DNA from: an uncultured Clostridia bacterium
Lineage (GTDB): Bacteria > Bacillota > Clostridia > TANB77 > CAG-508
NCBI GenBank assembly: GCA_944391965.1
Contig: CALXVH010000002.1
Location: forward strand, 22,425 to 86,424
DNA: 64,000 nt
Direction of reading: 5' to 3'
The notes under the pieces are model-generated. The model did not search any database. It saw only the letters and a program-made list of their open reading frames with translations, and had not been told where the DNA came from. Below are positions 3,986 through 57,611 of this stretch, in pieces; positions within the stretch are counted from its first letter, which is position 1, and every line of letters begins with the position of its first letter. The translations under genes and the position numbers were made by a program.

Positions 3986-4138
3986 CTTTATTCTCCTTTA
4001 GCGATATTTTGTTCTCCTGCAAATTATATCATAATTCTGTATTTTAACAACATAAACTTACACTTTTTTTACTTTTGTTAAAAACTTTTCGTAATAACAG
4101 AAACACACGAAATCCTCTATTTCAAAATAAAACTTTTT

Positions 4139-4170
4139 AAAAAGCAGTCCTATAAATTAGGACTGCTTTA
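4139..4170 (-). terminator. Rho-independent terminator after the histidine kinase gene
   Basis: 8-bp stem gcagtcct/aggactgc with a 7-nt loop and a T-run on the minus strand. Confidence 0.65.
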
Positions 4171-4202
4171 TTCATGTGTATTAGTATTATAAGTAGTTCT
4201 TC

Positions 4203-40442: not shown

Positions 40443-43400
40443 TTATTTCTTATTTATTTTTTTCTTTTGTCTCTTTGTTAATACTACTGCATATCTTAAT
40501 GTTACTGTCTCTAATCCTACTAATCCTACTAATGCAATTATTAACCCTATTGGTAATTCTCCAGTTTCTACACTTATGATTACATTTGCATTTGCTGTAT
40601 TATCTTTATCATTGTTATCTACAAATCCTGGTACATTTCCTGTTCCTACTAATTTTACTTCATTAGTCTTTTCTCCCATGTTCTCTCCAGTTTGTTCCCA
40701 GTTTAATAATACTGTATATTCTTTTGTTTCTCCTGCTCCTAGCTCTGGTATTACTTTTATTAATTTTCCTTCTTGTTCTTCCCATGTTCCGTCATTATTT
40801 GCTAGTCTCATTCCTTCTGGAATGTTTTCTTCTATTGTTGCGTTTCCGCTTACTTCTCCTGTGTTACTTACTTTTATCTTGTATTCTACTTGTACACTTG
40901 TTTCTTCTGTACTCTTTCTGTAGATTTCCACTTTCTCTATTTTTCCATTTGTAGGTTCTCTTCTTTCTCCATTTACTATTATTCCTGTTATTTCTTTGTC
41001 TACTCCTATGTTAAATGGTTTAGCTTCGTAATAATAATATAATTCTATTGTATTATTTACTACATCGTTTCCTTCTTCATCTTTTACGATTTCTACTTTC
41101 ATTTTACCTTGTTCTTCTTGTGGCTTCTCGATTAATGTATAATACTCGAATTCTTTTGCTGTTGCTGTATAATCGTCATCTTTTTGTCCTTCTATTAATA
41201 CTTGGCTATTTTGTAATTCACCTGTTTCTGGATTTGTTTCTTCTATTTCTTTTCCTGTTGCTTTTTCCACATAGTGTACTATTACTTTTGCTGGTTGATT
41301 ATAGTAATAGTTTACTACTATTTTTTCTTCTGTCATTGTTCCTATTGAGTTTGTTGGTAACATACTGTTTCCCTCTTCATCTACTGTTACTACTTGATAG
41401 CTTAGGAAATCTTTTGAAGGTATATTGTATTCATCTCCTATATGTCCTTGGTGTAACGTTGGCTCTTCTAATTCTTCTCCTGTTCTTAAGTCTATATGAT
41501 GTTCTTCTACTCCAGCAGATTTCTTAGCATAATAATATGTTACGATTGTTCTATTGTTTGTTATATTTCCTTGTTCATCTGTTTCGACTATCATTGTGCC
41601 TTCTTTATTGCCTTGAATTTCTATCATGTCATATCCATCGAAAACTTTTTCCTCGGTAGTATAACTATCACCTTCGTGTTTTGTATCATCAACTACTTGG
41701 TCTGCTAATGGTTCTCCTGTTAATTTATCTATGTAGTTTACTTCTAACACTGCTTTTTTAATGTAATAGTAATTTACTGTTACAAGTTCTTCTCCCATTG
41801 TTCCTTCTGCATTTTCTGGAAGTTTGCTTTCTACTAAGTCATATCCTTCAAATTCTTTGCTTGGTATGTCGTAGTCTTCTCCTACTTGTACATCATGGCT
41901 TTCTGTATATAACACTTTTCCTGTCTTATCATCTATGTGGTTTTCTATTAATCCTGTATATACTGGTTCATAGTAGTAGATTAGTGTTTGTTCTTCTTTT
42001 GTCATCTCTATTGTTGTCTTTTCTGGGCTTTCTACTAATTTGTATCCCACAAAGTCTTTTGAATTTGTTACAAATTTATCTCCTACTAGTCCTTCTTTTA
42101 CTGTTGGCTCTTCTAAGTCTTTTACTATTTCGTGTGTTTCTGGATTTCTTTCCACATATCTTACTGTTGCTTTTGTATTTTGTAGATAATAGTATGTTAC
42201 TGTTATATCTTGTAATGTCATATTTCCTGTTTTGTTACCACTGTCACTAACTAAAGTATATGTTTTTCCGTCTTTCTCAATTGTTTCTTTTCTGTGGTCT
42301 GTATCTGTATTGTAACTATCATCTACATATCCTGTTATTTGCTCTTGACTGCTTAATACAACATTATTGCTGTCATCTGTATCTTCATCTTTCTCTAAGT
42401 AATTTATTAATACTTTTGCTGGTTTTAATCTGTAATAATATATTACTTCTTGTGGCTTCTCTTCGTTGTATTTTTCTATTGTTCCTGTAGCATTTGCTGG
42501 TAATTTTTCTGCTACAAGTTCGTATTTTTCATTTATATTAGTTGCTGCTTCTGTTTCATATGATGTTCCTTCTTTTCCTTCTATTACTACATCTGCTATT
42601 TCTGTTCCATTTGCATCTGGAACTCTTGTTGTTGTAGTACTTCCATCTGTATTCATTATGTAATGATGTACTGTTACTTTTCCATATTTATTTGTGTTTG
42701 TTACTGTCTTATCTATAACTATGCTGTCATAGTATCTTAAATCTCCTTCTGTCTTTTCTTCTTCTGTTAATGTATATACTATTTCTTGTTTATTTTCATC
42801 ATATTTTGGTAAGTTCTCGAATATATCATTCCATTTATTTGGATTTGTGCTATCTTGTGTTGTTGTACTTCCTGCTGTTCCTGGTTTTGCTACTTCTTTT
42901 GTATATTCGCTTCCATCACTTCCATGTAGTTTGAATACTACTTTTGTAGGACGTTGTCCAAGTTTGTTTGAGTCATCTTCCCAAACTTTACTTACTGGTA
43001 TATTTACTGTAAATCCAGTTGTTGTAGTTGCATTTGCTGTTACTTCATCACTTGTCATAACTGGTGTTTCGTATTCTATATGTCCTGTAACAACATTTTT
43101 TATACTTACTACATCTGGGCTTACATCTTTATATACTACTTTTATTGTTTTATTTACTGTTATTTCTTTTTCTTCTGTAATTTGTATATTTTCTACAGGT
43201 TCTTCCCATGTTATTGTTTGTGCCTGTGCATCATATGTTCCTCCTGCTAAATCTGATCTAGCTTCATCTATTGCATATGGTAATGTATCTATTAATTTTA
43301 CTGTTGCTCTTCCACTATAGTCTGTTATCCTTGCTGTGTAATTAATATTATATGTTATTTCACCATTTAGACTATCTATTGTTGCTGTTCCATTTTTACT

Positions 43401-46400
43401 TATGCTTTGCTCCTCTTTTGGTTCTACATATGTATGCTCTGGCTCTTCTGGAACTTTCTTGTCTTCTCCATTTTGATTTATATATGCTGTATTCTTTATC
43501 TTTGTTCCATCTATTAATTTGTTTACTGTTACTTTAAACTCTACTACTTTTTCTGCTCCTACTCCAATTGTTACATTTATTCCGTTTTGTAAGTCTGTTG
43601 CTGTTTTTGTGCTGTCTGCAACATTGTCTATCTTTACTGAACCTTCTACAAATGTTGTTCCTGTTGGGACTGTATCTTTTATTATTGCTGTTCCTTCTCT
43701 TGTTCCGTCATTTCTTACTCTTATTCTGTATGTTATTTCGTCCCCAAAGCGTACTTTACTTCCACTTGCTGGGTCTGATTCTTTATGTGCTGTTATATTT
43801 GCTTTTGTTACATTTGTTGTTACTTCATTTGTTGGCTCATTATCTACTGTTGCTTGGTTTGTTAATGTCTTACTGTATTCATTACTTGCTAATGTATCTA
43901 CTTTTCCTGCAAATACTACATCTATACTTCCATTTGCTGGTACCTCTACTGGTATTCCATTCTTTAAGTTTTGTTCTGTGTAAACTGTTCCTGTTTCTCC
44001 TACTTTTATTAATGTATCTTTATCAAATGTTATTCCTGCTGGCAATGTATCTCTTACTGTTACTGTTTTTGCTAGGTTTCCTTCATTTTTTATTCTTACT
44101 GTATATGTTACTTTTTCTCCTTCTATTGCTTCTGTTTTATCTACCAATTTTTCACTGCTAATTATCGCTTTATATATTGTACTTTCTTGGCTTCCTGTTA
44201 CTTCTTCACTTGTTTTCTCCGGTGTTAATAACTTAATATTTCCTTTTACATTATTAACAACTTTTTCTTGGTTCATATCTAAATCTACATATACTACTTT
44301 AAATGTCTTTGTAACATTTACTGTTCCATTACCTGTATAACTATTTATGTCTGATACGTTCTCTTTCCATGTAATTGTCTTGCTAGCTGAATCATATGTT
44401 CCACCTGCTAAATCTGATTTTGCCTCATCTATTGCATATGGAAGTGTATCTACGATTGTTACTTCTGCATTTCCTATATAGTCTGTTACATTTGCTGTAT
44501 ATGTTACAGTATAACTCATTTCTTGATTTGCTACTGTTATTCTGTCTGTTCCTGTTTTTGTTATGTTATTTGTCACACTTGGTGTTTTTAGCCTGTAGTA
44601 ATATATTACTACTATTTGGTCTTCTGTCATCGTTCCTGTTGCATTTGTTGGAGTTGTTACTAACTCATAATTTTGTGGAATATCTGTTGCTACTTGTGTT
44701 GTATAACTATCTCCTACTTTTCCATTTATTGTTACATCATTACTTAATTTTTCTGTTGTATTTTCTTTATAGTGGTGTACTAGTACTGATGTTGCTTTTA
44801 ATTTGTAGTAATATATTACTTCTATTGTATCTTTTGTCATAGTTCCACTAGCATTTGTTGGTGTAGATATAAGTTCATACATACTATTTACGTTATCTGC
44901 TGGTTTAGTTGCATAAATATCTCCAACAACTCCTGTTTGTGTAACATCATCTGCTGTTCCACCATCTTGTAATGGAACTTTATCTGTTGTTCCTTCTATA
45001 TAGTAGTGAACGATTACTTTGGCTGGTATTTTTTCAAATTCTACTACTACATGTTTATCTTCTGTCATATCAGTAAATTTATTTAAAATTACTGTTCCAT
45101 CATCTTCTGCTGTAAATTCTATAGATTCTCCATTTATTAGTATTTGTTTTACTTGATAATTTTCGTCAGGTACTGCAACTATATCATTTTGTGAATCTTC
45201 TCCATATATAACTGTTTCATATGGATTTTGATTTTGTCCAGATATAGTTCCTCCTGCTACATCTACCTCTTCTCCCATTTCGTTTGTTTCTTTATGGGTT
45301 TGTACAGCAGTTGTTACTTCTACTTTTTTAGCTTTATAGTAATATGTTACTACAACTCCATCTTTAGTATATATTCCATTTGCATTTTCAGGAGTTATAG
45401 AAAGTTCATATTTAGGATTTAATTCTTCTGGTGTTAATGCTACTGTTGTGTATTCTGTTCCTATTTCTCCTTTAGTTATTACATCTTGTGCAAGTTCGCC
45501 TGATGCTAGTGGTACTTGTTCGTTTGTACCTTCAATATAATGGTGTACAGTTAATGGAACTTGTTTTTTAACATAATAATATGTAATAACTTGTTCTTCT
45601 TGTTTAAATGTTCCACTTGCGTTATCAGGAATTACATATTCTCCATCTACTTGTTTTAATTCATATTCTTCTAAATCCATATGTGGAGCTGTTGTATAGC
45701 TTTCACCAATTGTTCCTGCAATGTGTTCATCTTCTGCAACTTTTGTTTGTGTACCATCTATATAATGATGTACTAAAACACTTGAAGCAGTATTACTGAA
45801 TGTTACTACTATATGTTTATTTGTTTGCATATTTGTAAATTGTGGCATTGTGAATGACCCATCTTCAGCTGGTGTAAATTCATAATTTTCACCATTTACA
45901 GTTATCTTAACAATCTTGTAATTCTCATCTGGTACAATCTTAATTTCTTTTGTACTGTCTTTTCCATATTCAACTGTCTCGTATGGTGCTTCATCTTCAC
46001 CTGTGATTGTTCCACCTTTTACTCCATCCACTTCTTCTATATCTGTAGTTATTTGGAATTTCTTTAAATTATTTTCTATTGTTATTTCTGATGATTCTGG
46101 AACTTCTGGCGCTGTAATAATTTCTCCATAGTTAAATACAAATCCATCAGAATATTTAGATAAGCTTGCTCCTTGTGAATCTGCTGTATCTCCTTTTACT
46201 GTAGTACTATTAAAATATCCAACTGCAACAAATTCATTTTCATCTCTTTCTGCAACTCCTGTTACTTCGTCTAAATTATCACCTGTTACTTGTTTATACC
46301 ATGCTTGGTTTCCGTCAGAATCATATTTTATTACAAATCCATCAGAGTCACCAGAAATACTAGGTATTTCCCATGTTGTTTCTTCTTGGTTAAAGTCAAC

Positions 46401-49400
46401 TTGGCTACTATATGTATAACCACCTATCATATATCCACCATCTGTAGTTTTAGTTACACTTGTTAATACTTCATCCAATGTTCCTCTTATAAATTTGCTA
46501 CTATTAATTGTACTAGAGTTTATATCATATTCTATAATTATTCCGTCATAATTACCTTTTGTTTTTACTGTTTGTGCTGTTCCTGTGTAATTACCTACAA
46601 TTATAGCTTTTCCATTATCTAATCTTGCAACTGCATTTGCATTAAAGTCTAGTTCGCTTCCTGCAGTTACACTACCATTTGAGTATAAATCTATTCTACC
46701 TGTAGTTGTATCTGTTAATCCTTGGCTTACTATTATGACATCTTGGCTATTATATCCATCCATATCTGAAATTTGTACATTTGCACTTATTGTTGTTTCA
46801 CCATTTATGCTTCCATCTGTATTAGTATACTCTATAACTTTTGGATTTTCGCCAGTTGTAACACCTGCAACGATATTTCCTTCCAATTTTTGTGTTAATG
46901 CTGTTACATCATAATCTAATCCTTCTTGTGCAACTTCTTTAGCCCATTCATAACTTCCACTACTACTTAGTTTTATTACTATACCTTTTAAGTCGTTTGT
47001 AGTATTTGTTAAACCTGTACTTACTTCTCCTACTTGTAAATTTGTACCTGTAAAGCTTCCTCCTACTACATAACCACCATCATTTGTTTGAATTACTTTA
47101 TGTAATATAACTTCTCCTGATTCTGTATATACAGAATTTGCAATTTCCATATTACCTTCTTTGCTATATTTTGCAATAAAGCCAGAATAATATGAATCGT
47201 TTCCTTTTACATCTGCTAATCCATCATTGTTTAAATCAGCTTCTTTTGTAAAATATCCACTTGTTACAAATCCGTTATCTGTAGTTGATTCTACAGCTTC
47301 TACTTTATTCCACAAATCTCCTGCAACACTTGTATTAAATGATGTTCCAAATTCTGTTTCTTGTGCTTTACTTGCACCAATACCAAAATAATATGTTCTA
47401 TCTGCTTCATTTTCTGCAAGTTCGTAGCCTTCTGGTGCTTCTATTTCGGTTGCTTTATATAACCCTGCTTTTAACCCATAAGAAATTTCACCATTTTCGT
47501 CTGTTTTTACTACTGGGATTTGTGTATTCATTCCTTCTAGTTTTATATTTTTTACAAAACCAGAATCTAAACCTTCACTGTTAGAACCATCTGTTCTGTA
47601 TGTAAATGCAATTTTATATGTGCCTGCTTCTAATTCTTCTGTTACAGTTTCGAAACTTAAGTCGTTATAATCTGTAATAGAAGAATTTCCACCAATTTTA
47701 GTTGATGTTCCTCCTATTGTAGAATTATCCTTTGTATTTGTAATTGTATAATATACATAATCATAACTTGCACTTTCTGAAGATACTGCCCATTCAAAGC
47801 TAATATTTCCGTCTTTTTCTAGTGTAAATTCTTTTGATGTCATTGTACTTGTTTTGCTTGTTAGGCCAGAAATTCCACTTTGATATGTTCCATCCTCTAA
47901 CTTAGACCATGGATATGTTTCCTCATCTAATGGGAATGTAATACTACCTGCTCCAACGTTTTCTTCTAATGTACCTACAACATTTCCATTAATATCTTTT
48001 GCAAATCCTAATTCATTATAATTTTCATCTATTTCTTTTATAACAAATTTAGCATTTTGAATTGGAAGTTTTGTTGCCCCATCTATTTTTGTTATTTTAA
48101 ATAATGGCTCATCTTCGAATTCTAAGTTTATAGTATTATCTTGTACACTACTATTACGTAAGAAATTGTCTCCTAATACTTCTAATTCTAAAGCTCCTTC
48201 TGTATTTCTTTTTACTCTAAATTGTAGTTCTCTAGAATCTAGCGCATATCCTTCTGGTGGAGTAATTTCTTGAAGTGTATATACTCCAGTAATGTTCTTT
48301 CCTTCTACATATTCGTAAAGGTTTGGAATTGTGAGTATTCCTGTATCATCTGTTGTATATGTTGCTCCTTTTTCGTCAATTCCTTCGCCTGTTATTTTAT
48401 ATTGTGCACCTTTTAATGTTGTGTCTTCTTCTTTTGCAAATTTCTTTACAGTAACTTGGTATGTAGGTATTTTTTCGTTTGTAAGTTCTGCTGTTACAGT
48501 ATCTTGTGCATCTAACCCTGTTACACCTGTTCCTGTTGTAACTTGTGAAGTACTATTAAAGCTTCCACTTGTAACTACAAACTCTAATTTTCCAGAATTA
48601 TTTACAACTTTAAATTTAACTGGTGTTTCGTTTACATAGTAATCTTTAGCCTCTGTTTCTGTTAATGTATATTCTACATCATGAGAAAGTCCTGTTAATG
48701 TTAAAGTTCCTTCTTTATTTGTTGCAACTGTAATACCATTTCCTAGTCCTTCTCCCTCTAGCTTATACTTTACACCTGCTAAAAGACTGCTATCTGCACC
48801 ATCTTTTTTAGTTAAAATAACTTTATATTTTGGTGTATTTTCTACTTTAAAGTTTAGTATTCCTCTAGAGTCTGCTGTTGCTTGTGTAATGCTATATTCT
48901 TTTAAAGAATCTTGACCTTCTAGAATTTGTAATACTAACTTATCATCTTGTACTGTTACTTTGAATTTAACTTCTGTTTCGTTCTTTTCGTATGAACCTG
49001 GTGTACGAATTTCTTTTAATATATATGTTTTATCAACAAATAAATTTTGAATTGTAAATGTTCCAGAATTATTTGTTGTTCCTAGTTTTGTTTCATCTTC
49101 GCCTTCTGCTGTTATACTAAATGTTGCTCCTTGTACAGGTACTGTAGTATCTTCTTTTACCTTTTGCATATTGAAATGATATTTTCTTTCTATTCTAAAT
49201 CCTAGTTTTGTTGTTTCTGTTTGTGTTTTAAATTTTCCTTCTGCTGTATCTAGGCAGAAATATACTGCGTGTGCACTATATGAAACATCATTATAGCTTA
49301 CTGTACTTGGTACTTTTATTTGATATGTAAATACTCTATTTTCTTTTACATTTAGTACATAATCGCCTAAATCAATTAGATATGTTTTTACTTTAGAAAA

Positions 49401-52010
49401 GTCTGGTGTAGTTGTCCAACCATTTTCGCCATCATTTAAGTCTGTTGTTGGATTTTCTTTTTCTGAATAATACACTGTAACTTTATCTTTCATATCTTCT
49501 GGTACTGTTATTCCACCATCTACCATTTGTGTAGTATAGTTTGAACCTAGGTCTGTTCCATTTATGGAGAAAGTATTTCCTTTAAATGGGATTTTTCCTA
49601 ATATGCTAACTTCGCTTATTGTTCCAGAATAATTATTTGTTACACTTACATTTACTGTAGCTGTATCTGCTTCTGTTTTGTCTATTGTTGCAATTTGTGG
49701 TGCAACTGCTGTTTCGCCTGCTTCATTATAATTTGTAGCTTGTTGATTTGTTAAAAGTGAACTTGGTGCTACTATATTTAATGTATCTGTTGCATAATTA
49801 ACATTCTCTGTTACATTTTCGTCACCATCTACATCATATATATCTGCTGTTGTATTTTTATAATTATTGCAGAATTCGTTATATGCATATAGTTTTACAC
49901 TTTTGGATTGTGTTACAGATCTTGGATCTGCTGTTAAGTTTGTATTAATTGTAATTGTATAATTTGCTTCGTTTTCGTTTTCTGTTTCTATTTTAATAAA
50001 TTTCTTTCCGTCTTGTTCTACTATTTCGTATGCTAATAGTTTTACACTAGAGTTAGAAATATTTACACTATTTATTTCTACATCTAAAACTTCTTCTGGT
50101 AATTCTACTAAAAATCTACCATTTGTCCAACCTTTCATATTGTAATAATCATTACGTGTAGTAATAGTTAAGTCTATATCTTTTTCTGTATTTTGAGTTC
50201 CTATTGTATCTCTATTTACTGTAATGCTTGCAACTGATATTGGTTCTTCATAACGAGCATTTGCAGTATCATCATTTATTTTTGTATATTCTGTACTTCC
50301 TTCTATTTTTACATTTCCTGTTAAATATGTATATACATATTCTAATTTATCAAATTCTTCTTTTGTAAATGTTGATGTTAAAACATTATCATCTATCTCT
50401 TTAATATTGTATACATAGAAACTAGCATTTTTATTTGCTTTACTTGTTTCAACTCTTATATGTTTTACTGGTTCTTCATACATATATGGTGATGAACTAC
50501 TATAATTATTCCAATCTTCTTTTGTAAATGTATGTATTTCTTCTCCTGTTTCATCATTTATAACTTTTATGTATCCATCTTCACCTAATGTATTTTCTAC
50601 ATTTGAAAAATATATACCAGTATTTTTTGTATAGTCTGACATATTAAAATATGTTCCTTCTGTATTTAAAAATCTATCTGTATATGGTGTATTAGTTTCT
50701 TTCATTTGGATAGAATCTACATTTATTTGATCTCCTGTATATGCATACCATCTTACTTCGTATAAATCTTCTGTTTCTTCTGCTGTTTCATTATATATTT
50801 TTAGAGGTTCTTCTTTAGATATTATATAATTATAATCATAACTTCTATATTTTCCAATTGTTACATCAAATCTTGCTACACTTCCTTCTGGCTTTCTCCA
50901 TAGAAATGTTATATTTCTTTCTGCTATATTTGATTGTATTGGATTTTGGAATTCGTCATTTGGATTGTTAAATCCTTCATAATATGCTTTTACTGGAACT
51001 TGTAAGCTTAATGTATCTCCTGTTAAGCTTTCGTATAGTTCATATGGATATGTTACTTTAAAATTAAATGTATTATAGTCTGATACTGTTTTTGTAACTA
51101 TTCCTGCTTCGTTTATAGAGGCTTCTCTTGTAATTGTGAAGTTTCCTGTTTCTTCGTCATATTCAAAATTTACATCACTAGAAGTTAATTCTACACTTGT
51201 TGGTTTATATCCATTTACTGTTGGTATTGTTCCTTCTAAAACTGCTTTTTTTAGTATTAAATCGTCTGTTGTTTCTCTTGTTGTTACACTAAAGTTTAAT
51301 GTTATATTTTCTTTATTTTCGTCTGTTATTTCTTCTATATTTTGTGTACCTGTATAGTTATAGATACTTGCTGTAACACTTCCATACCAATCCACATTAA
51401 AATCTACTGTTTTACTTATTTGTGTTTCAGTTCCGTCATCTGCTATATGTTTACCAGTAAGTACTACACTGTTTACTTGGCTATATTTATTTGTATCATT
51501 TCCAAAATTAGAGGCATTTACTGTACCATATATTAATTTTTGTGTTCCGTTATTTACATCTTTTAATGCGATTTCTGTTGTATTATTTGATATATAGTTT
51601 TGTTTTATAACATTATCTTCTACTATTGCTGTAGATAGGTTCATATTAGATGTTTTTATAGTTATTTTTCCATCTACTAATTTACCATTTGTTAGTACAT
51701 TTAGGTTCATGTATAGTGTATCTGTTTTATTTATATCCCTACACATTCCACGTACTTGTTCTGCGTAACCATCTCCGTCTAAGTCACGCAAAAAGAACGC
51801 ATCAAATTGAACATAGTCTGTATTTGGTACCTTTTCGTCACCTTCTTGTACTTGTTCATATTCCATGCTTTTTTGTATTTCTGGGTCTGCTAATAATTTA
51901 GCTTTTTGGTTTTGTGTATTAACCAGCAGTGCAACTACTGTTATTATTGCTGTTACTACTGCTAATACACTAATTGATAATGTTATCTTTTTCGTTCGTT
52001 TCCCTTTCAT
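40443..52010 (-). CDS. Giant multidomain cell-surface adhesin (3855 aa)
   Basis: N-terminal signal/anchor. Repeated SpaA/Cna-B-like modules (e.g. VQGATFSITAEGE...YILKEIRTPGSYE). SBBP-like beta-propeller repeats (DGGYVVGGSFTG, DGFVIKYDSDGNQAW). Listeria-Bacteroides-type repeats (GGTITGEDEAPYETVEYGKDS...). About 15 MucBP-like repeats (VxVHYxxxGT...YxT....GYxL...GT......VxYYY). DUF11-like repeats (VTYTVRIKNEGN...VRDTLPAGITF). C-terminal hydrophobic helix plus a KRQKKKINKK tail. Confidence 0.85.
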   Translation of the reverse strand: MKGKRTKKITLSISVLAVVTAIITVVALLVNTQNQKAKLLADPEIQKSMEYEQVQEGDEKVPNTDYVQFDAFFLRDLDGDGYAEQVRGMCRDINKTDTLYMNLNVLTNGKLVDGKITIKTSNMNLSTAIVEDNVIKQNYISNNTTEIALKDVNNGTQKLIYGTVNASNFGNDTNKYSQVNSVVLTGKHIADDGTETQISKTVDFNVDWYGSVTASIYNYTGTQNIEEITDENKENITLNFSVTTRETTDDLILKKAVLEGTIPTVNGYKPTSVELTSSDVNFEYDEETGNFTITREASINEAGIVTKTVSDYNTFNFKVTYPYELYESLTGDTLSLQVPVKAYYEGFNNPNDEFQNPIQSNIAERNITFLWRKPEGSVARFDVTIGKYRSYDYNYIISKEEPLKIYNETAEETEDLYEVRWYAYTGDQINVDSIQMKETNTPYTDRFLNTEGTYFNMSDYTKNTGIYFSNVENTLGEDGYIKVINDETGEEIHTFTKEDWNNYSSSSPYMYEEPVKHIRVETSKANKNASFYVYNIKEIDDNVLTSTFTKEEFDKLEYVYTYLTGNVKIEGSTEYTKINDDTANARYEEPISVASITVNRDTIGTQNTEKDIDLTITTRNDYYNMKGWTNGRFLVELPEEVLDVEINSVNISNSSVKLLAYEIVEQDGKKFIKIETENENEANYTITINTNLTADPRSVTQSKSVKLYAYNEFCNNYKNTTADIYDVDGDENVTENVNYATDTLNIVAPSSLLTNQQATNYNEAGETAVAPQIATIDKTEADTATVNVSVTNNYSGTISEVSILGKIPFKGNTFSINGTDLGSNYTTQMVDGGITVPEDMKDKVTVYYSEKENPTTDLNDGENGWTTTPDFSKVKTYLIDLGDYVLNVKENRVFTYQIKVPSTVSYNDVSYSAHAVYFCLDTAEGKFKTQTETTKLGFRIERKYHFNMQKVKEDTTVPVQGATFSITAEGEDETKLGTTNNSGTFTIQNLFVDKTYILKEIRTPGSYEKNETEVKFKVTVQDDKLVLQILEGQDSLKEYSITQATADSRGILNFKVENTPKYKVILTKKDGADSSLLAGVKYKLEGEGLGNGITVATNKEGTLTLTGLSHDVEYTLTETEAKDYYVNETPVKFKVVNNSGKLEFVVTSGSFNSTSQVTTGTGVTGLDAQDTVTAELTNEKIPTYQVTVKKFAKEEDTTLKGAQYKITGEGIDEKGATYTTDDTGILTIPNLYEYVEGKNITGVYTLQEITPPEGYALDSRELQFRVKRNTEGALELEVLGDNFLRNSSVQDNTINLEFEDEPLFKITKIDGATKLPIQNAKFVIKEIDENYNELGFAKDINGNVVGTLEENVGAGSITFPLDEETYPWSKLEDGTYQSGISGLTSKTSTMTSKEFTLEKDGNISFEWAVSSESASYDYVYYTITNTKDNSTIGGTSTKIGGNSSITDYNDLSFETVTEELEAGTYKIAFTYRTDGSNSEGLDSGFVKNIKLEGMNTQIPVVKTDENGEISYGLKAGLYKATEIEAPEGYELAENEADRTYYFGIGASKAQETEFGTSFNTSVAGDLWNKVEAVESTTDNGFVTSGYFTKEADLNNDGLADVKGNDSYYSGFIAKYSKEGNMEIANSVYTESGEVILHKVIQTNDGGYVVGGSFTGTNLQVGEVSTGLTNTTNDLKGIVIKLSSSGSYEWAKEVAQEGLDYDVTALTQKLEGNIVAGVTTGENPKVIEYTNTDGSINGETTISANVQISDMDGYNSQDVIIVSQGLTDTTTGRIDLYSNGSVTAGSELDFNANAVARLDNGKAIIVGNYTGTAQTVKTKGNYDGIIIEYDINSSTINSSKFIRGTLDEVLTSVTKTTDGGYMIGGYTYSSQVDFNQEETTWEIPSISGDSDGFVIKYDSDGNQAWYKQVTGDNLDEVTGVAERDENEFVAVGYFNSTTVKGDTADSQGASLSKYSDGFVFNYGEIITAPEVPESSEITIENNLKKFQITTDIEEVDGVKGGTITGEDEAPYETVEYGKDSTKEIKIVPDENYKIVKITVNGENYEFTPAEDGSFTMPQFTNMQTNKHIVVTFSNTASSVLVHHYIDGTQTKVAEDEHIAGTIGESYTTAPHMDLEEYELKQVDGEYVIPDNASGTFKQEEQVITYYYVKKQVPLTVHHYIEGTNEQVPLASGELAQDVITKGEIGTEYTTVALTPEELNPKYELSITPENANGIYTKDGVVVTYYYKAKKVEVTTAVQTHKETNEMGEEVDVAGGTISGQNQNPYETVIYGEDSQNDIVAVPDENYQVKQILINGESIEFTAEDDGTVILNKFTDMTEDKHVVVEFEKIPAKVIVHYYIEGTTDKVPLQDGGTADDVTQTGVVGDIYATKPADNVNSMYELISTPTNASGTMTKDTIEVIYYYKLKATSVLVHHYKENTTEKLSNDVTINGKVGDSYTTQVATDIPQNYELVTTPTNATGTMTEDQIVVIYYYRLKTPSVTNNITKTGTDRITVANQEMSYTVTYTANVTDYIGNAEVTIVDTLPYAIDEAKSDLAGGTYDSASKTITWKENVSDINSYTGNGTVNVTKTFKVVYVDLDMNQEKVVNNVKGNIKLLTPEKTSEEVTGSQESTIYKAIISSEKLVDKTEAIEGEKVTYTVRIKNEGNLAKTVTVRDTLPAGITFDKDTLIKVGETGTVYTEQNLKNGIPVEVPANGSIDVVFAGKVDTLASNEYSKTLTNQATVDNEPTNEVTTNVTKANITAHKESDPASGSKVRFGDEITYRIRVRNDGTREGTAIIKDTVPTGTTFVEGSVKIDNVADSTKTATDLQNGINVTIGVGAEKVVEFKVTVNKLIDGTKIKNTAYINQNGEDKKVPEEPEHTYVEPKEEQSISKNGTATIDSLNGEITYNINYTARITDYSGRATVKLIDTLPYAIDEARSDLAGGTYDAQAQTITWEEPVENIQITEEKEITVNKTIKVVYKDVSPDVVSIKNVVTGHIEYETPVMTSDEVTANATTTTGFTVNIPVSKVWEDDSNKLGQRPTKVVFKLHGSDGSEYTKEVAKPGTAGSTTTQDSTNPNKWNDIFENLPKYDENKQEIVYTLTEEEKTEGDLRYYDSIVIDKTVTNTNKYGKVTVHHYIMNTDGSTTTTRVPDANGTEIADVVIEGKEGTSYETEAATNINEKYELVAEKLPANATGTIEKYNEEKPQEVIYYYRLKPAKVLINYLEKDEDTDDSNNVVLSSQEQITGYVDDSYNTDTDHRKETIEKDGKTYTLVSDSGNKTGNMTLQDITVTYYYLQNTKATVRYVERNPETHEIVKDLEEPTVKEGLVGDKFVTNSKDFVGYKLVESPEKTTIEMTKEEQTLIYYYEPVYTGLIENHIDDKTGKVLYTESHDVQVGEDYDIPSKEFEGYDLVESKLPENAEGTMGEELVTVNYYYIKKAVLEVNYIDKLTGEPLADQVVDDTKHEGDSYTTEEKVFDGYDMIEIQGNKEGTMIVETDEQGNITNNRTIVTYYYAKKSAGVEEHHIDLRTGEELEEPTLHQGHIGDEYNIPSKDFLSYQVVTVDEEGNSMLPTNSIGTMTEEKIVVNYYYNQPAKVIVHYVEKATGKEIEETNPETGELQNSQVLIEGQKDDDYTATAKEFEYYTLIEKPQEEQGKMKVEIVKDEEGNDVVNNTIELYYYYEAKPFNIGVDKEITGIIVNGERREPTNGKIEKVEIYRKSTEETSVQVEYKIKVSNTGEVSGNATIEENIPEGMRLANNDGTWEEQEGKLIKVIPELGAGETKEYTVLLNWEQTGENMGEKTNEVKLVGTGNVPGFVDNNDKDNTANANVIISVETGELPIGLIIALVGLVGLETVTLRYAVVLTKRQKKKINKK

Positions 52011-52044: not shown

Positions 52045-53322
52045 TTAATTTTTTGATTTGTTATAATTTTGAATTTTTTTGTTGCTTAGTATTACTTTAT
52101 ATAAAGTGCGGAACGACAACCGTACGTAGCTGAAGTAGTTAGTCGGACCGTAGTAGTTACGATAGTCTGCTGGATATCTGTCGCCATCTTTCTTGTAATG
52201 GCCACCCCTACACACCCTGTTGATGGAACTGCTGGCCTCCATTGTCCAGTCCCACACATTACCTGCTAGGTCGTATATGTTATTTGCTTTCGTGTATTCT
52301 GTACTTCCTGTTGGAATTCTTGTACTACTTCCCTCATTTTTCGTTGCTGTACTTCCACTACTATTTACATATTCAAATGTCGCATTGTTATAGTTTCCCC
52401 AACTTGTTGAGTCATCTGCTATTTGCTCTTTTGTTTTACTTCCTGTCTCTATTAACCACATCAACGTTCTATCCCATTGGTTTCCCCATATCATTCCTGT
52501 TTCTACATTTGTATTGTCTCCTTTAATGTTTTTACATCTTTTATACATGTTGTACCATGTTTGAAAATTTATATCTGTGTTTCCTTTTTGTACTACTGGT
52601 GTTTCTTGGTTTATATTTCCTGTTTCATATCTTCCTATATAGAATCCTCCATACTTTTCTACACTTACTATCATATTATTAAATTCTTTTTCTAGCTGAT
52701 TTAAAAATTCATGGGTTGTTTTGGCTCCTAGTCCTCTAGTTTTTAAAGTTGAATCATAATCATAGCTTTTTACTATATCCGGCTCTCTATAACTCGTTTT
52801 ACTACTTATTGTCATTACTCCATCGCTTTCGCTCCAGTTATATGGTTTCGTTCCTGTTATTTCATCATAACTACTACTCATACTTGACGAAAACTGATAT
52901 TGTTTTCCCCATTTCTTTCCATTGGCATCAGTTCCATAGAATTTACTTATATCTGGTACTGGTATCCACACATATTGGTTTCTACTTTTTTGTGCATCAG
53001 CTACATTGCTGTCTGTTACTTCTTCTTCTCCTTCGTATATTACATATCCTGTATCTATTTCATTTTCTCCTGCCACACTACTTCCTACATATCCGTTTGG
53101 TACTGGTACTTTATCTCCACTTGCATCTTCTTCTACGTGCATATGCTCATTATTTTCCAAATTTATGGCGTTTACAGTTGATTTTGTAGCTTGTAATACA
53201 GTACTATTCTCTTTTTTAGAAAATGCAAAAATTAAACTTGTTAAAACTACTATAACTGCTAATATTCCGCAAATTATGCATACCATTTTTCTATTTATTT
53301 GCTTTCTTGTTTTCTCAGCCAT
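52045..53322 (-). CDS. DGR target protein 1: membrane-anchored FGE-sulfatase/C-type-lectin-fold protein carrying VR1
   Basis: N-terminal TM helix (VCIICGILAVIVVLTSLIFAF). C-terminal GMIWGNQWDRTLMWL ... NIYDLAGNVWDWTMEA ... RVCRGGHY is the FGE/CLec hallmark. The last about 44 structured residues align to the TR. Confidence 0.85.
   Translation of the reverse strand: MAEKTRKQINRKMVCIICGILAVIVVLTSLIFAFSKKENSTVLQATKSTVNAINLENNEHMHVEEDASGDKVPVPNGYVGSSVAGENEIDTGYVIYEGEEEVTDSNVADAQKSRNQYVWIPVPDISKFYGTDANGKKWGKQYQFSSSMSSSYDEITGTKPYNWSESDGVMTISSKTSYREPDIVKSYDYDSTLKTRGLGAKTTHEFLNQLEKEFNNMIVSVEKYGGFYIGRYETGNINQETPVVQKGNTDINFQTWYNMYKRCKNIKGDNTNVETGMIWGNQWDRTLMWLIETGSKTKEQIADDSTSWGNYNNATFEYVNSSGSTATKNEGSSTRIPTGSTEYTKANNIYDLAGNVWDWTMEASSSINRVCRGGHYKKDGDRYPADYRNYYGPTNYFSYVRLSFRTLYKVILSNKKIQNYNKSKN
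52105..52237 (-). repeat. DGR variable region VR1
   Basis: 133 nt aligning without gaps to the TR. My hand count gives 27 mismatches, 19 at TR adenines (coding sense) and 8 elsewhere. Confidence 0.8.
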
Positions 53323-53512: not shown

Positions 53513-53767
53513 TTAATCTAAAAACTTAAAATTATATATTTCTATAATCTCAACTTGCATATTTTCTCTCAGTCTTCCTCTTAAAAAAAACTCTTCTAAA
53601 TCTTTTTGATATATGTAATCTGCTATGTTATCATACGCAAACACCTCTATTTCCGAATTATTTAATAACTTTGCTTTAAATAAAACTTTTGATTTTTCTT
53701 TACTATTTATTACAAATTTAAAATTTATATCACTTGTTCTTTTTACAAATAAAAAACATTCATTCAT
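53513..53767 (-). CDS. Small hypothetical protein (84 aa) conserved in both repeat copies
   Basis: ...SEIEVFAYDNIADYIYQKDLEEFFLRGRLRENMQVEIIEIYNFKFLD is about 85% identical to the ORF at 57396-57587. It vaguely recalls an OB-fold/SSB pattern. No clear RBS. Confidence 0.35.
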   Translation of the reverse strand: MNECFLFVKRTSDINFKFVINSKEKSKVLFKAKLLNNSEIEVFAYDNIADYIYQKDLEEFFLRGRLRENMQVEIIEIYNFKFLD

Positions 53768-53987
53768 AATTATTTGTTAAAATTCTTAGCAATTATTAAC
53801 TAAAATCATAAAACGATACTTTTTCCTAATCTTTTAGGAAAGGGCTTAAAATACATACTTTCGTCATACCTACCGGTATATATTTTAATGATTCATATTT
53901 ACCTAAAATAGGAAGGAATAAACCTCTTTAATATCTAATATTTCGCTGGACTACTTCCTTAAAACTAGCCATCTGGATTGATATTAG

Positions 53988-54120
53988 AGTGCTGCACGAC
54001 AACCGTCTGTTGCTATTGTTGTTAGTCGGATTGTTGTTGTTACGATTGTCTGCTGGATTGTTGTCGCCATTGTTGTTGTAATTGCCACCCCTATACGCCC
54101 TGTTGTTGGTACCGTTGGCC
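53988..54120 (-). repeat. DGR template repeat (TR)
   Basis: Starts 13 nt after the RT stop codon. In coding sense it reads gcc aac ggt acc aac aac agg ... aac aga cgg ttg tcg tgc agc act. My hand count gives about 51 adenines in 133 nt and 18 AAY codons in 44. It aligns to VR1 and VR2. Confidence 0.9.
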
Positions 54121-54133
54121 TTTTGGTCTATCC

Positions 54134-55144
54134 CTAATTTATATAAAAAAGTTTTTCTTCCAAATTCCTTGTATTTGCATATTTCATATAACCTAAATGT
54201 CCACATATAAATCTACTTGCTTCTTTACTACTCATATTGCCCTTTTGTACTTCTTTTTTTAAATATTTAACCTTTTGTTTAATAGCTTTTTTACCTCTGT
54301 CGCGTAGCTTTAAACGATATTCATTTATCTTGTATCCACAAAAATTTACTCCTTGATCACTTTTAAATATTTGGGTTTTGTCGTTTAATTCTAATTCCAA
54401 TTTTATTTTTAAATAATTTTTAATTTTTTCTAAAAGTTCAATGGCTTCTTTCTTTGTTTTTACAAATAAAATCGAATCATCCATATATCTAAAATAGTAT
54501 TTTACCTTAAGCTCGTGCTTTATATATTGGTCTATTTCGTTTAAGTATATATTTGCAAATATTTGCGAGGTATAATTACCTATCGGAAGTCCTTTTTTAC
54601 CTGAATTTGAATACACTATTTTTTCTAATAGTTCTACTAGTTTTTCTTCTTTTACTTTTCTTTTTAAAATATTCATTAAAATATCTTTATCTATATTCTG
54701 AAAATATTTTCGAATATCCATTTTTAAAATATAGTAATTTTGCCATATTCTTTTGCAATGCTTCATTGTATTTTGTACATCCATAGATGCTTTATGCATT
54801 CCTCTATTTTTTATACACGCATATGATGTATTTATAAATTGATTTACAAAATATCTATTTAAGAAACTATCTACTATCCATCTATGTACAATTCTATCCA
54901 TATATCGTGAAGCTTCTATTTTTCTTCTTTTAGGATACTGTATATAAAAAATTCTATATCCGCCATGTTTATAAGTTCCGTTTTTTAGCTGTTCATATAA
55001 CCATCTGATATATTCTTCTTGTTTTAGATTAAATAGAATTACTTCTTTTTTATAGTTTTTTCCTTTTCTAGAAAGTAAATGTGCTTTCATAAGATTGTCA
55101 TAAGTTAAATATTTATCAAATTCATGCCTTATTGTTTTTGCCAT
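54134..55144 (-). CDS. DGR-type reverse transcriptase
   Basis: 336 aa with RT motifs ILKMDIRKYFQNI (A), GLPIGNYTSQIFANIYLNEID (B, containing the DGR-specific [I/L/V]GxxxSQ), FRYMDDSILFV (C, YMDD) and VNFCGYKI (E). There are no intron-maturase or endonuclease extensions. Confidence 0.9.
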   Translation of the reverse strand: MAKTIRHEFDKYLTYDNLMKAHLLSRKGKNYKKEVILFNLKQEEYIRWLYEQLKNGTYKHGGYRIFYIQYPKRRKIEASRYMDRIVHRWIVDSFLNRYFVNQFINTSYACIKNRGMHKASMDVQNTMKHCKRIWQNYYILKMDIRKYFQNIDKDILMNILKRKVKEEKLVELLEKIVYSNSGKKGLPIGNYTSQIFANIYLNEIDQYIKHELKVKYYFRYMDDSILFVKTKKEAIELLEKIKNYLKIKLELELNDKTQIFKSDQGVNFCGYKINEYRLKLRDRGKKAIKQKVKYLKKEVQKGNMSSKEASRFICGHLGYMKYANTRNLEEKLFYIN

Positions 55145-55496
55145 AGTATTTTACTAAGCCTCCTATTATTTTTCCCATTTCGTATATTAGGCTCATGGCA
55201 TATTCGAATTTTTTCTTATCTATCCATGCGTTTTTACACATGATTCTTAACAAAATTCTTTGAACACTTAAATCTGCATCAATTTTATTGATACTTTTAA
55301 ACCTATCTTTTATTTCTATTTTGTTTAAGTACATTATGCCTTCTAACATCTTATACATAGAATTCTTGTATTCTGTTCCTATACTAAATTTTTCTGTTCT
55401 TGGAATTTTTAATATTACTTCTAGCATATATTCAATATATCTTTCGGATTTTGGAATTAATGTTAATTCATTTTCTTTTTTATTTAACTTTTCCAA
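55122..55496 (-). CDS. avd: Avd-like accessory variability determinant (four-helix-bundle family)
   Basis: 124 aa, helical and basic. It overlaps the RT start by 23 nt and the upstream gene by 17 nt. The pattern YIEYMLEVILKIPRTEKFSIGTEYKNSMYKMLEGIMYLN fits the Avd / 23S-rRNA-IVS protein family. The start appears to be TTG. Confidence 0.7.
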   Translation of the reverse strand: MEKLNKKENELTLIPKSERYIEYMLEVILKIPRTEKFSIGTEYKNSMYKMLEGIMYLNKIEIKDRFKSINKIDADLSVQRILLRIMCKNAWIDKKKFEYAMSLIYEMGKIIGGLVKYYGKNNKA

Positions 55497-55875
55497 GCTT
55501 TCTCACTCTTTCTAATATATCTTCTTCCTGTTCTTTTCTGTTTGTACAACTTGTACATTCTAAACAGTTTTTGGTTTCCTCAGTATTTTTACCTTTGTAT
55601 CTATATATTTCTTCTAATTCATCTTTTTCGTTTTTTATATATAAAATAAACGAATAGCCTAGTTTCTCTAACTTCTCTATATATTTCTCTACATTTTTTA
55701 CTAAAAATCCTACTTTACACAGTTCTTTTCGCATACAAGTTAGTTTTAAGCCTAATTCTTCATTTAAAATTATTGCATCTTTTCCTATTGCTACAAAAAA
55801 TATTCCATTTTTTGCTAATATTATTGTACCTTCATTTTCTTTTTGTATTTTTTCCACTTCTTGGACGAATTTCAT
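55480..55875 (-). CDS. MutS-domain-I-like small accessory protein with a C-terminal Cys cluster
   Basis: 131 aa. [33 protein letters not shown] aligns by eye to E. coli MutS [60 protein letters not shown] aligns to [26 protein letters not shown]. The tail is [12 protein letters not shown]. Confidence 0.65.
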   Translation of the reverse strand: [131 protein letters not shown]

Positions 55876-55971
55876 ATTTTATTTTCCTCCACATAAACAC
55901 AAATTATTAATTTTCTATTATTTAAACTTCTTTACTTGTTATAGTGCATCGCTACCAGGGCTCAGTATTAC

Positions 55972-57213
55972 TTAATATAAAGTGCTGCACGACAACCGTA
56001 GGTAGCTAGCGCCGTCAGTAGGAACGTCGTTGCTACGATCGTCAGCTGGAACGTAGTCGCCATAGTTGCTGAAATTGCCACCCCTAGACGCCCTGTAGCC
56101 GGTACCGTAGGCCTCCATTGTCCAGTCCCTTACGTTTCCGACTAGGTCGTATATGTTATTTGCTTTCGTGTATTCTGTACTTCCTGTTGGAATTCTTGTA
56201 CTACTATTTTTGTTTTTCGTTGCTGTACTTCCACTATTATTTACATATTCAAATGTCGCATCGATATAGTTTCCCCAACTTGTTGAGTCATCTGCTATTT
56301 GCTCTTTTGTTTTACTTCCTGTTTCTATTAACCACATCAACGTTCTATCCCATTGGTTTCCCCATATCATTCCTGTTTCTACATTTGTATTGTCTCCTTT
56401 AATGTTTTTACATCTTTTATACATGTTGTACCATGTTTGACTACTTATATTTGTATTTCCTTTTTGTACTACTGGTGTTTCTTGGTTTATATTTCCTGTT
56501 TCATATCTTCCTATATAAAACCCTCCATATTTTTCTACACTTGCTACCATATTATTAAACTCTTTTTCTAACTGATTTAAAAATTCATGAGTTGTTTTGG
56601 CGCCTATTCCTAATGTTTTTAATCTTGAATCCATATCATAACCTGTACTACTATATTTTGCTACTACGTCTGGCTCTCTATAATTTGTTTTACTACTTAT
56701 TGTCATTACTCCATTGTTTTCGCTCCAATTATATGGCTTTGTTCCTGTTATTTCATCATAACTACTACTCGTACTTGACGAAAATGTATATATTTTTCCC
56801 CATTTCTTTCCATTGGCATCTGTTCCATAAAATTTACTTATATCTGGTACTGGTATCCACACATATTGGTTTCTACTTTTTTGTGCATCAGCTACATTGC
56901 TGTCTGTTACTTCTTCTTCTCCTTCGTATATTACATATCCTGTATCTATTTCATTTTCTCCTGCCACACTACTTCCTACATATCCGTTTGGTACTGGTAC
57001 TTTATCTCCACTTGCATCTTCTTCTACGTGCATATGCTCATTATTTTCCAAATTTATGGCGTTTACAGTTGATTTTGTAGCTTGTAATACAGTACTATTC
57101 TCTTTTTTAGAAAATGCAAAAATTAAACTTGTTAAAACTACTATAACTGCTAATATTCCGCAAATTATGCATACCATTTTTCTATTTATTTGCTTTCTTG
57201 TTTTCTCAGCCAT
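55972..57213 (-). CDS. DGR target protein 2: membrane-anchored FGE-sulfatase/C-type-lectin-fold protein carrying VR2
   Basis: A paralog of target 1 with an identical N-terminal ~140 aa, NIYDLVGNVRDWTMEA and RASRGGNF. I place the start at the ATG at 57213 (MAEKT), 8 nt after AAGGAG, as in copy A. Confidence 0.85.
   Translation of the reverse strand: MAEKTRKQINRKMVCIICGILAVIVVLTSLIFAFSKKENSTVLQATKSTVNAINLENNEHMHVEEDASGDKVPVPNGYVGSSVAGENEIDTGYVIYEGEEEVTDSNVADAQKSRNQYVWIPVPDISKFYGTDANGKKWGKIYTFSSSTSSSYDEITGTKPYNWSENNGVMTISSKTNYREPDVVAKYSSTGYDMDSRLKTLGIGAKTTHEFLNQLEKEFNNMVASVEKYGGFYIGRYETGNINQETPVVQKGNTNISSQTWYNMYKRCKNIKGDNTNVETGMIWGNQWDRTLMWLIETGSKTKEQIADDSTSWGNYIDATFEYVNNSGSTATKNKNSSTRIPTGSTEYTKANNIYDLVGNVRDWTMEAYGTGYRASRGGNFSNYGDYVPADDRSNDVPTDGASYLRLSCSTLY
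55981..56113 (-). repeat. DGR variable region VR2
   Basis: 133 nt aligning without gaps to the TR. My hand count gives 26 mismatches, 24 at TR adenines. The 3'-terminal 19 nt (acggttgtcgtgcagcact) are identical to the TR. Confidence 0.9.
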
Positions 57214-57251
57214 TTTCATTTCTCCTTCAAGATTTTATATTATATATATTT

Positions 57252-57395: not shown

Positions 57396-57611
57396 TTATT
57401 CTAAAAACTTAAAATTATATATTTCTATAATTTCAACTTTCATATTTTCTTGTAGCTTACCCCTTAAGAAAAACACTTCTAAATCTTTTTGATATATATA
57501 ATCTGCTATGTTATCATATATAAACACCTCTATTTCCGAATCATTTAATAACTTTGTTTTAATAAAACTTTTGATTTTTCTTTGCAATTTATTACAAATT
57601 TAAAATTTATA
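57396..57611 (-). pseudogene. Frameshifted and truncated copy of the small ORF at 53513-53767
   Basis: It has a 1-nt deletion relative to copy A (gctttaaataaaac versus gttttaataaaac on the plus strand). The upstream part (NINFKFVINCKEKSK) is in a different frame and is preceded by a stop codon. Only a 63 aa TTG-initiated ORF remains. Confidence 0.5.

Follow-up and report, generated by a model that had tools for sequence, protein, structure and literature searches.

An apparently active diversity-generating retroelement beside an RT-14 RNA in an uncultured gut Clostridia bacterium

How do two copies of one sequence come to differ almost exclusively at the adenines of one of them? This question is raised by a locus in a 64,000-nucleotide (nt) stretch of contig CALXVH010000002.1 (assembly GCA_944391965.1, positions 22,425 to 86,424) from an uncultured Clostridia bacterium; the whole stretch is called the window here, and its own numbering is used throughout. 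The original prediction, made from the sequence alone, was that the two copies are the template repeat (TR) and a variable repeat (VR2) of a diversity-generating retroelement (DGR). Support for this reading now comes from the reverse transcriptase (RT), the accessory protein Avd, the fold of the target protein, the comparison with a closely related locus (L062) and 120 natural variants of the target. With high confidence, the region 52.0-57.2 kb can be regarded as a DGR in which the TR is copied by an error-prone RT to rewrite VR2 of a surface protein.

The recomputed plus-strand alignment of the TR (53988-54120) with VR2 (55981-56113) spans 133 nt with no gaps and contains 26 mismatches, as predicted. 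When these are classified by base, 24 fall on template adenines, which appear as T on the plus strand and are replaced in VR2 by all three other bases (T>C 12, T>A 9 and T>G 3). The two exceptions, TR positions 54007 and 54027, are each a plus-strand C>A. With T at 51 of the 133 aligned positions, a hypergeometric test gives P = 2.6e-10 for 24 or more of the 26 mismatches being at T. An even spread over the four TR bases, named beforehand as the pattern that would speak against a DGR, is not seen. The homology can be extended in the 5' direction to 54124, giving 137 nt with 29 mismatches, of which 27 are at adenines (P = 3e-11). The full TR (53988..54124, minus strand) accordingly comprises 137 nt with 55 adenines and a constant 3' segment at 53988-54006. 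VR2 (55981..56117, minus strand) differs from it in these 29 positions and ends in the codons ...RLSCSTLY*. A repeat finder independently returned a three-copy family at 52102-52238, 53985-54121 and 55978-56114, the first member being a second variable repeat, VR1.

In the coding sense, the translation of the TR matches the string given in the original prediction, including its 18 AAC/AAT (AAY) codons. The theoretical repertoire derived from these codons, 15^18 or 1.48e21, is correct and counts as a lower bound: when all adenine-containing codons upstream of the constant 3' segment are included (ACC, TAT, TAC, GAC, AGC, ACT and AGA also vary), it becomes 1.1e27. Only one TR codon, AGA (54008-54006), can be converted to a stop by adenine mutagenesis. 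The terminal 19 nt, ACGGTTGTCGTGCAGCACT, are the same in TR and VR2, as had been claimed, and this 19-mer is found at three sites in the window (TR, VR2 and, with two mismatches, VR1), where 0 are expected.

A template that is still in use should give different products in strains that share it. L062 is collinear with the window at 95-98% identity; the accessory gene msl, avd, the TR, the RT-14 RNA and a small open reading frame (ORF) are 100% identical between the two, with 98.5% identity for the RT. VR2 reaches only 78.5% and differs at 31 positions, of which 30 lie at TR adenines; the remaining one is the synonymous change at 54027, which is private to the window. The same asymmetry is encountered in strains with other TR alleles. 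In L001 and L002, the mismatches of VR2 to the strain's own TR lie at adenines in 23 of 24 and 18 of 19 cases, respectively, and the fit to foreign TRs is poor. VR2 of L083 also fits its own TR.

The original prediction proposed sequencing clones or single cells across VR2, and public data now serve this purpose. A protein database holds 120 homologues of the VR2-bearing protein at 87-98% identity, nearly all of them in singleton clusters, and their variation is concentrated at the AAY codons. The entropy is 2.4-3.1 bits with 9-14 residue types at 17 of these 18 codons, compared with mostly <0.3 bits at codons lacking adenine and a mean of 0.10 outside the VR. Y, S, N, D and G abound in the natural VRs, and practically each VR is distinct; one of them (P0121) is a single AAC codon apart from VR2 of the window. 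Judged by these comparisons, there has apparently been recent and repeated mutagenic homing into VR2, and the element appears to be active at this repeat.

The genes expected of such an element are present. The cassette lies entirely on the minus strand in the order target gene 2 with VR2, msl, avd, RT, TR, RT-14 RNA and target gene 1 with VR1. The 336-aa RT (54134..55144) matches RVT_1 with E = 1.6e-20, and among PDB entries the Bordetella phage bRT ranks first (8ub7_A, E = 1.1e-35), with a match that covers the full length, ahead of group II intron RTs at 2e-19. Both the motif LPIGNYTSQ, of the IGxxxSQ type (bRT I181/G182/Q187), and YMDD are present; none of the NCBIfam RT models reaches its cut-off with this protein. 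The accessory variability determinant, avd (55122..55496), encodes 124 aa and scores 67.6 bits with Pfam bAvd (cut-off 40, E = 1.6e-18). The third gene of the operon, msl (55480..55875), encodes a 131-aa protein with a MutS_I domain (Pfam E = 6.7e-9, 36.4 bits against a cut-off of 20.6). By its size, its MutS_I match and its position next to avd, it fits the MSL accessory class, small (112-283 aa) MutS-related proteins encoded together with avd in DGR cassettes (PMC5758913). In two relatives, L083 and L084 (1101-1400), msl is shortened to 88-99 aa and VR2 still differs from its own TR in an adenine-specific way; therefore, the full-length MutS-like protein may be dispensable.

Target gene 2 (55972..57219, minus strand) encodes 415 aa: an N-terminal membrane anchor, which target 1 also has, an extracellular region and a C-terminal FGE-sulfatase/C-type-lectin-like domain, with VR2 forming the last 45 codons. 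Searched as a single protein, the target has no match among solved structures, and a family profile is needed. The profile built from 15 diverse relatives matches structures of the FGE-sulfatase fold, namely pFGE (1y4j, 1.1e-7), PorK/GldK and TvpA (2y3c, 2.5e-3), and 12 of the 15 relatives match Pfam FGE-sulfatase. The end of the protein, ...RRLSCSTLY*, departs from the family-canonical ...G[FC]RxxLYIK* in that the final VR codons are read in the +1 frame. The canonical ending predominates among natural homologues and the +1-frame ending is the minority form, and both kinds are diversified. Compared with L003 and L001, the 3' ends of TR and VR in the window (53988-54010 and 55972-56005) carry one extra base, AGAC-GGT in place of AAT-GGT.

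How are donor and recipient told apart if the two repeats end in the same way? The original prediction proposed a boundary of the kind described for the initiation of mutagenic homing (IMH), where the recipient IMH and the donor IMH* differ. The sequences it gave for the continuations after TR and VRs are correct, and the abrupt end of homology is real and family-wide. What does not stand is a difference within the repeat: the 19-nt segment is identical in TR and VR2 and therefore cannot itself carry directionality. What separates donor from recipient lies in the flanks and not inside the repeat. DGRs in which IMH equals IMH* exist, and a flank-based distinction has been anticipated for them (Wu et al., PMC5758913).

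The sole fixed TR-VR difference lies immediately upstream of the 19-nt segment: position 54007 is G in the TR of the window, L062, L002 and L083, and T in the VRs of the window, L062 and L083. The adjacent adenine, 54008, is represented by G, C, T or A in the VRs of the same three loci. Within the terminal 19 nt, three adenines are unchanged in three independent VR2s (P ~0.0014 at the upstream per-adenine rate of 52%). On this sequence pattern, information transfer seems normally to end between 54008 and 54007, which suggests that the T and the 19 nt act as an IMH-like anchor. The pattern could instead reflect purifying selection on ...RLSCST, and the VRs of L002 (AGA and TGG) indicate that the boundary is not absolute.

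Beyond the repeat, VR2 is followed by a conserved sequence of ~37 nt, TTATATTAAGTAATACTGAGCCCTGGTAGCGATGCAC (55944..55980, minus strand), which includes the stop codon and has no counterpart after the TR. In loci with RT identity down to ~62% (range ~62-70%), the VR continues after the common ...CACT with CTTTAYATWAAGTAGCACTGARCMCTGRTAGCGATRCAC, that is, with the stop codon and ~25 non-coding bases. In a test for a conserved fold after the VR, 18 aligned sequences gave 0 predicted pairs, and the copy in the window folds no better than shuffled sequences (z = 0.45). The copy behind VR1 (52068-52104) keeps the first ~20 nt, and so does that in L002. The post-VR sequence is thus a candidate determinant of the recipient site; its truncation at VR1, which looks frozen, is suggestive of such a role and not proof of it.

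The donor side is marked by an RNA. The TR starts 9 nt past the RT stop codon of the msl-avd-RT operon, and it is followed by a full-length RT-14 RNA (Rfam RF02921; 53846..53989, minus strand; model positions 1-144, 120.9 bits against a gathering score of 48.1, E = 5.6e-18). RT-14 starts with the last two bases of the TR-VR homology, and its first helix begins at 53987, one base past the end of homology. An Rfam scan of 11 loci found RT-14 in all of them: ten have it downstream of the RT, and L016 has six copies in tandem on the upstream side. With nhmmer, RT-14 was detected in 82 of 84 related loci (there was no match in L048 and L075), always on the strand of the RT and directly 3' of an AAY-rich TR, with an invariant CTCTAATA at the junction. 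It is absent from 80 more distant viral DGR loci. RT-14 has been described as an orphan motif near RT genes with no assigned function; only RT-10 was linked to a DGR, and the authors raised, as a speculation, a DGR origin for further RT motifs (PMC5737381).

The other end of the TR is also marked. A conserved box, AGGGAUARAYC, lies 5' of every TR and is complementary to the RT-14 linker GRUUUAUUCCU. In the window, the box is AGGGAUAGACC (54125..54135, minus strand), which adjoins the TR and includes the final two bases of the stop codon TAG of the RT (54136-54134); its partner, GGUUUAUUCCU (53914..53924, minus strand), is annotated by Rfam as a single-stranded linker of RT-14. In a 56-sequence alignment, in which the known RT-14 stems also covary, the box:linker helix has 11 bp with 100% of cells paired, and compensatory double changes occur at 6 of these pairs (one of them is AU in 41 sequences, UA in 7, GC in 5, UG in 2 and CG in 1). 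The helix is not part of the Rfam RT-14 model; the box is ~140 nt upstream of the linker. The TR-VR homology, 54124-53988, is exactly the segment between the box:linker helix and the first RT-14 hairpin.

The Bordetella phage DGR has a duplex between sequences on either side of the TR that stops cDNA synthesis, and priming is in cis, by the RNA downstream of the TR; similar duplexes have been predicted for 207 Avd-type DGRs (bioRxiv 10.1101/2023.10.23.563531). By analogy, RT-14 is proposed to be the functional counterpart of the spacer (Sp) RNA of that phage element, and the box:linker helix would be what stops the cDNA. One part of the analogy was not found. In a search modelled on the pairing of Bordetella TR 118-129 with Sp 47-56, the constant 3' segment of the TR formed no covarying duplex with RT-14, with no helix of >=4 bp and >=85% pairing in those columns. 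A different pairing can be drawn in the minus-strand RNA, where the invariant linker AUAUUAAAGAG (53924-53934) could pair with the invariant CUCUAAUAU (53981-53989), with a bulged AA. The latter comprises the TR end and the 5' strand of the first RT-14 helix, and the linker side reads AUAUU-AA-AGAG; both sides are invariant. This pairing would be an alternative to the first RT-14 helix, and a conformational switch or a priming duplex is possible.

L016 (CAMXJY010000020) has an unusual arrangement: six complete tandem cassettes of box, TR and RT-14 lie at 3067-5223, upstream of avd-RT, and none lies downstream. Their RT-14 copies start at 3221, 3569, 3946, 4332, 4680 and 5075. The sole VR in this 13-kb locus matches cassette d, and all 8 mismatches in the homologous part are at adenines; the other five cassettes have both ends in common with the VR and differ from it at 20-26 non-adenine positions. 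The extra cassettes could allow switching of the template cassette, or could serve remote targets. Three tandem copies of RT-14 are also seen in L051 (10-846). It is tempting to speculate that RT-14 and the 5' box form a self-contained, modular scaffold for a TR cassette that fixes both cDNA ends, so that cassette switching is combined with adenine hypermutation; this idea is tentative, and we regard it as doubtful. If it is true, the cDNA would begin close to the first RT-14 hairpin and end at the box:linker helix, TRs would be modular, and cassettes would be switched as in antigenic-variation systems. The non-adenine mismatches of VR1 would then be the footprint of a change of TR allele.

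VR1 (52105..52241, minus strand) is frozen or decaying in appearance. It has 30 mismatches to the TR, and it differs from VR1 of L062 at 7 positions, clustered at the 3' end, compared with the 31 of VR2. Target gene 1 (52045..53322, minus strand), a 425-aa paralogue of target 2 in a duplicated block, has lost the usual stop codon (TAA>AAA) and gained a 10-residue extension. By eye, the non-adenine mismatches at 54113, 54097 and 53995, as well as the change at the adenine site 53993, match TR alleles of L001, L002 or L083. Other non-adenine changes are in third positions, for example AAC>AAG or AAA, and are not producible by adenine mutagenesis of AAY. Taken together, VR1 is best read as a now largely static target that was probably last written by an earlier TR allele. 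A single donor TR from another strain was sought and none was identified, as the rest of the mismatches match no such allele; TR alleles differ in length by 1 nt, which confounds an ungapped comparison of VR1 with the TRs of other strains. In L083 and L084 the target 1 paralogue is split into ORFs of 200 aa and 191 aa, and in L001 and L081 it has no VR. Paralogues with the extended tail are still diverse in other strains, and therefore this paralogue family is not dead everywhere.

Outside the VRs, the two target genes (52249-53322 and 56125-57219) are 86.6% and 91.5% identical to those of L062, and the cassette between them is 98.5-100% identical. The N-terminal halves of the two paralogues in the window are near-identical to each other. 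This suggests gene conversion between target paralogues in one lineage. Each target gene is also preceded by the ~60-aa C-terminus of a small ORF (...SEIEVFAYDNIADYIYQKDLEEFFLRGRLRENMQVEIIEIYNFKFLD*), which lies within the duplicated block at 53513-53700, between the RT-14 RNA and target gene 1, and at 57396-57580 (minus strand). This conserved C-terminus has no Pfam or NCBIfam match. In L081 and L083 the small ORF has 114 aa, and both copies in the window are remnants with in-frame stops upstream of the conserved part.

The surroundings of the element are those of a bacterial chromosome. Upstream of the cassette are genes for PtsI, HPr, a fructose-type phosphotransferase system (PTS) protein and a PfkB-family carbohydrate kinase. 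On the other side, the gene next to target gene 1 in the downstream direction (40443-52010, minus strand) encodes a 3855-aa surface adhesin with 11 MucBP, 4 SpaA, 3 DUF11, 1 Cna_B and 1 DUF7927 matches. The same layout recurs in L081 and L083, and this suggests that the DGR targets are part of an adhesion locus. A search with the RT returned 80 loci in bacterial genomes, all of them gut or rumen metagenome-assembled genomes labelled Clostridium or Clostridia, with L062 (99%) and 'Clostridium sp. CAG:354_28_25' (98%) as the nearest relatives. The region 52.0-57.2 kb is thus a chromosomal, cellular DGR lineage in a low-GC gut bacterium.

Could the pattern have arisen in another way? Paralogous copies altered by point mutation or gene conversion, with no reverse transcription, are one alternative; in its favour, the target genes are clearly duplicated and bear signs of gene conversion. 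Ordinary divergence of this kind would not confine mismatches to one base of one copy (P about 1e-10), nor place the non-coding copy next to RT and Avd, nor repeat the same asymmetry in independent strains, each measured against its own TR; we consider it highly improbable. Just as improbable is a prophage-borne DGR acting on a receptor-binding protein. In favour of this reading, the prototype element comes from a phage, and tail fibres of phages commonly carry C-type-lectin targets. Against it, the cassette lies between PTS genes for sugar uptake and the gene for a giant MucBP/SpaA adhesin, and the target protein is anchored in the membrane at its N-terminus. Phage and plasmid collections contain no match, and the relatives of the RT in IMG/VR are <=43% identical and lack RT-14. 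A somewhat stronger, still unlikely, rival is a relic DGR, one that once diversified VR2 and is now inactive, so that the TR-VR2 pattern is a fossil. The frozen look of VR1 in the same cassette, with its non-adenine mismatches, and the synonymous non-adenine change at 54027, private to the strain of the window, would fit such a history. The ORFs, however, are all intact and the catalytic motifs are present. Moreover, the 30 differences at VR2 adenines between strains with identical TR, avd and msl point to very recent events, as does a natural variant that is one codon away.

Several observations weigh against an active DGR at VR2 and should be set beside this. Two features of the Bordetella paradigm, a difference between IMH and IMH* and a GC hairpin after the VR, are absent for VR2: an inverted-repeat scan after VR2 found no GC-rich hairpin or cruciform. 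A GC-rich inverted repeat follows the VR in 34% of DGRs (PMC5758913). Over the 133-nt span, 8 of the 27 mismatches between VR1 and the TR are not at adenines. Two profile matches are slightly under their thresholds, Avd to NCBIfam DivGenRetAVD (72.5 bits against a cut-off of 80) and target 2 to Pfam FGE-sulfatase (22.2 bits against a gathering score of 23.3, E = 4.9e-4). The VR ends in the +1 frame instead of in the canonical ...GFRxxLYIK*, an ending that the fold would have to tolerate. Finally, the evidence for activity is wholly comparative, and the sequences are metagenome consensus assemblies.

With a DGR as the preferred reading, a sequence of steps can be proposed by analogy with the Bordetella phage element. 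A transcript of box, TR and RT-14 would wrap the RT-Avd complex, and priming of the cDNA would occur in cis, close to where the TR ends on its 3' side. The RT would misincorporate opposite adenines and halt at the long-range duplex. The cDNA would then replace VR2, giving new C-terminal ligand-binding surfaces on a membrane-anchored protein. After the common 19 nt, RT-14 would mark the donor TR and the ~37-nt conserved sequence the recipient VR.

The closest point of reference is the DGR of Bordetella phage BPP-1 (mtd-avd-TR-brt). Both elements have an RT of the same clade, Avd, adenine-specific mutagenesis from TR to VR, an AAY-rich TR, a VR at the C-terminus of a C-type-lectin fold, and a TR set in structured RNA with an upstream-downstream duplex. 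The window differs in its avd-RT-TR order, with the scaffold RNA 3' of the RT, and in having RT-14 and not an RT-10 region as that scaffold. IMH equals IMH* over 19 nt with no GC hairpin after the VR, and there are an extra MutS-like gene, two targets, a chromosomal site and a Gram-positive-type host. The TvpA DGR of Treponema denticola and other 'category b' targets (Wu et al. 2018, PMC5758913) are likewise cellular and have several targets; there, too, an FGE-sulfatase-type C-type-lectin domain of a surface protein carries the VR at its C-terminus. The Treponema element has an HRDC accessory gene in place of Avd and MSL, and the similarity of the targets is weak (the profile match to TvpA cited above). 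A small MutS-domain-I protein encoded with avd is shared with the MSL-containing DGRs ('Architecture D', Wu et al. 2018), among them the Legionella DGR, whose target belongs to the CLec2/DUF1566 class, unlike that of the window.

Each departure from the Bordetella paradigm is already catalogued; the MSL accessory gene and the avd-RT-TR core order, for example, are both documented DGR variants (PMC5758913). Compared with the published RT-14 (Weinberg et al. 2017, PMC5737381), of which the window holds a full-length member, RT-14 adjoins a TR here and its linker pairs with an upstream box that lies outside the Rfam model. What is modestly new is RT-14 as a DGR scaffold, the helix that brackets the TR and the post-VR element.

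The human gut is the richest known habitat for DGRs, and a DGR of this kind is ordinary there. What this locus offers is a natural experiment on activity, with identical templates and different VRs across strains and with >100 natural VR variants. It also gives the orphan Rfam motif RT-14 a concrete candidate role and predicts where the cDNA would start and stop in a DGR of the Gram-positive type. Where the Bordetella model has a hairpin and IMH differences, the recipient may here be marked by a post-VR sequence that is conserved and unstructured. For the bacterium itself, a role of the diversified target in attachment to the host or to glycans is suggested, because the target sits beside a giant mucus-binding adhesin.

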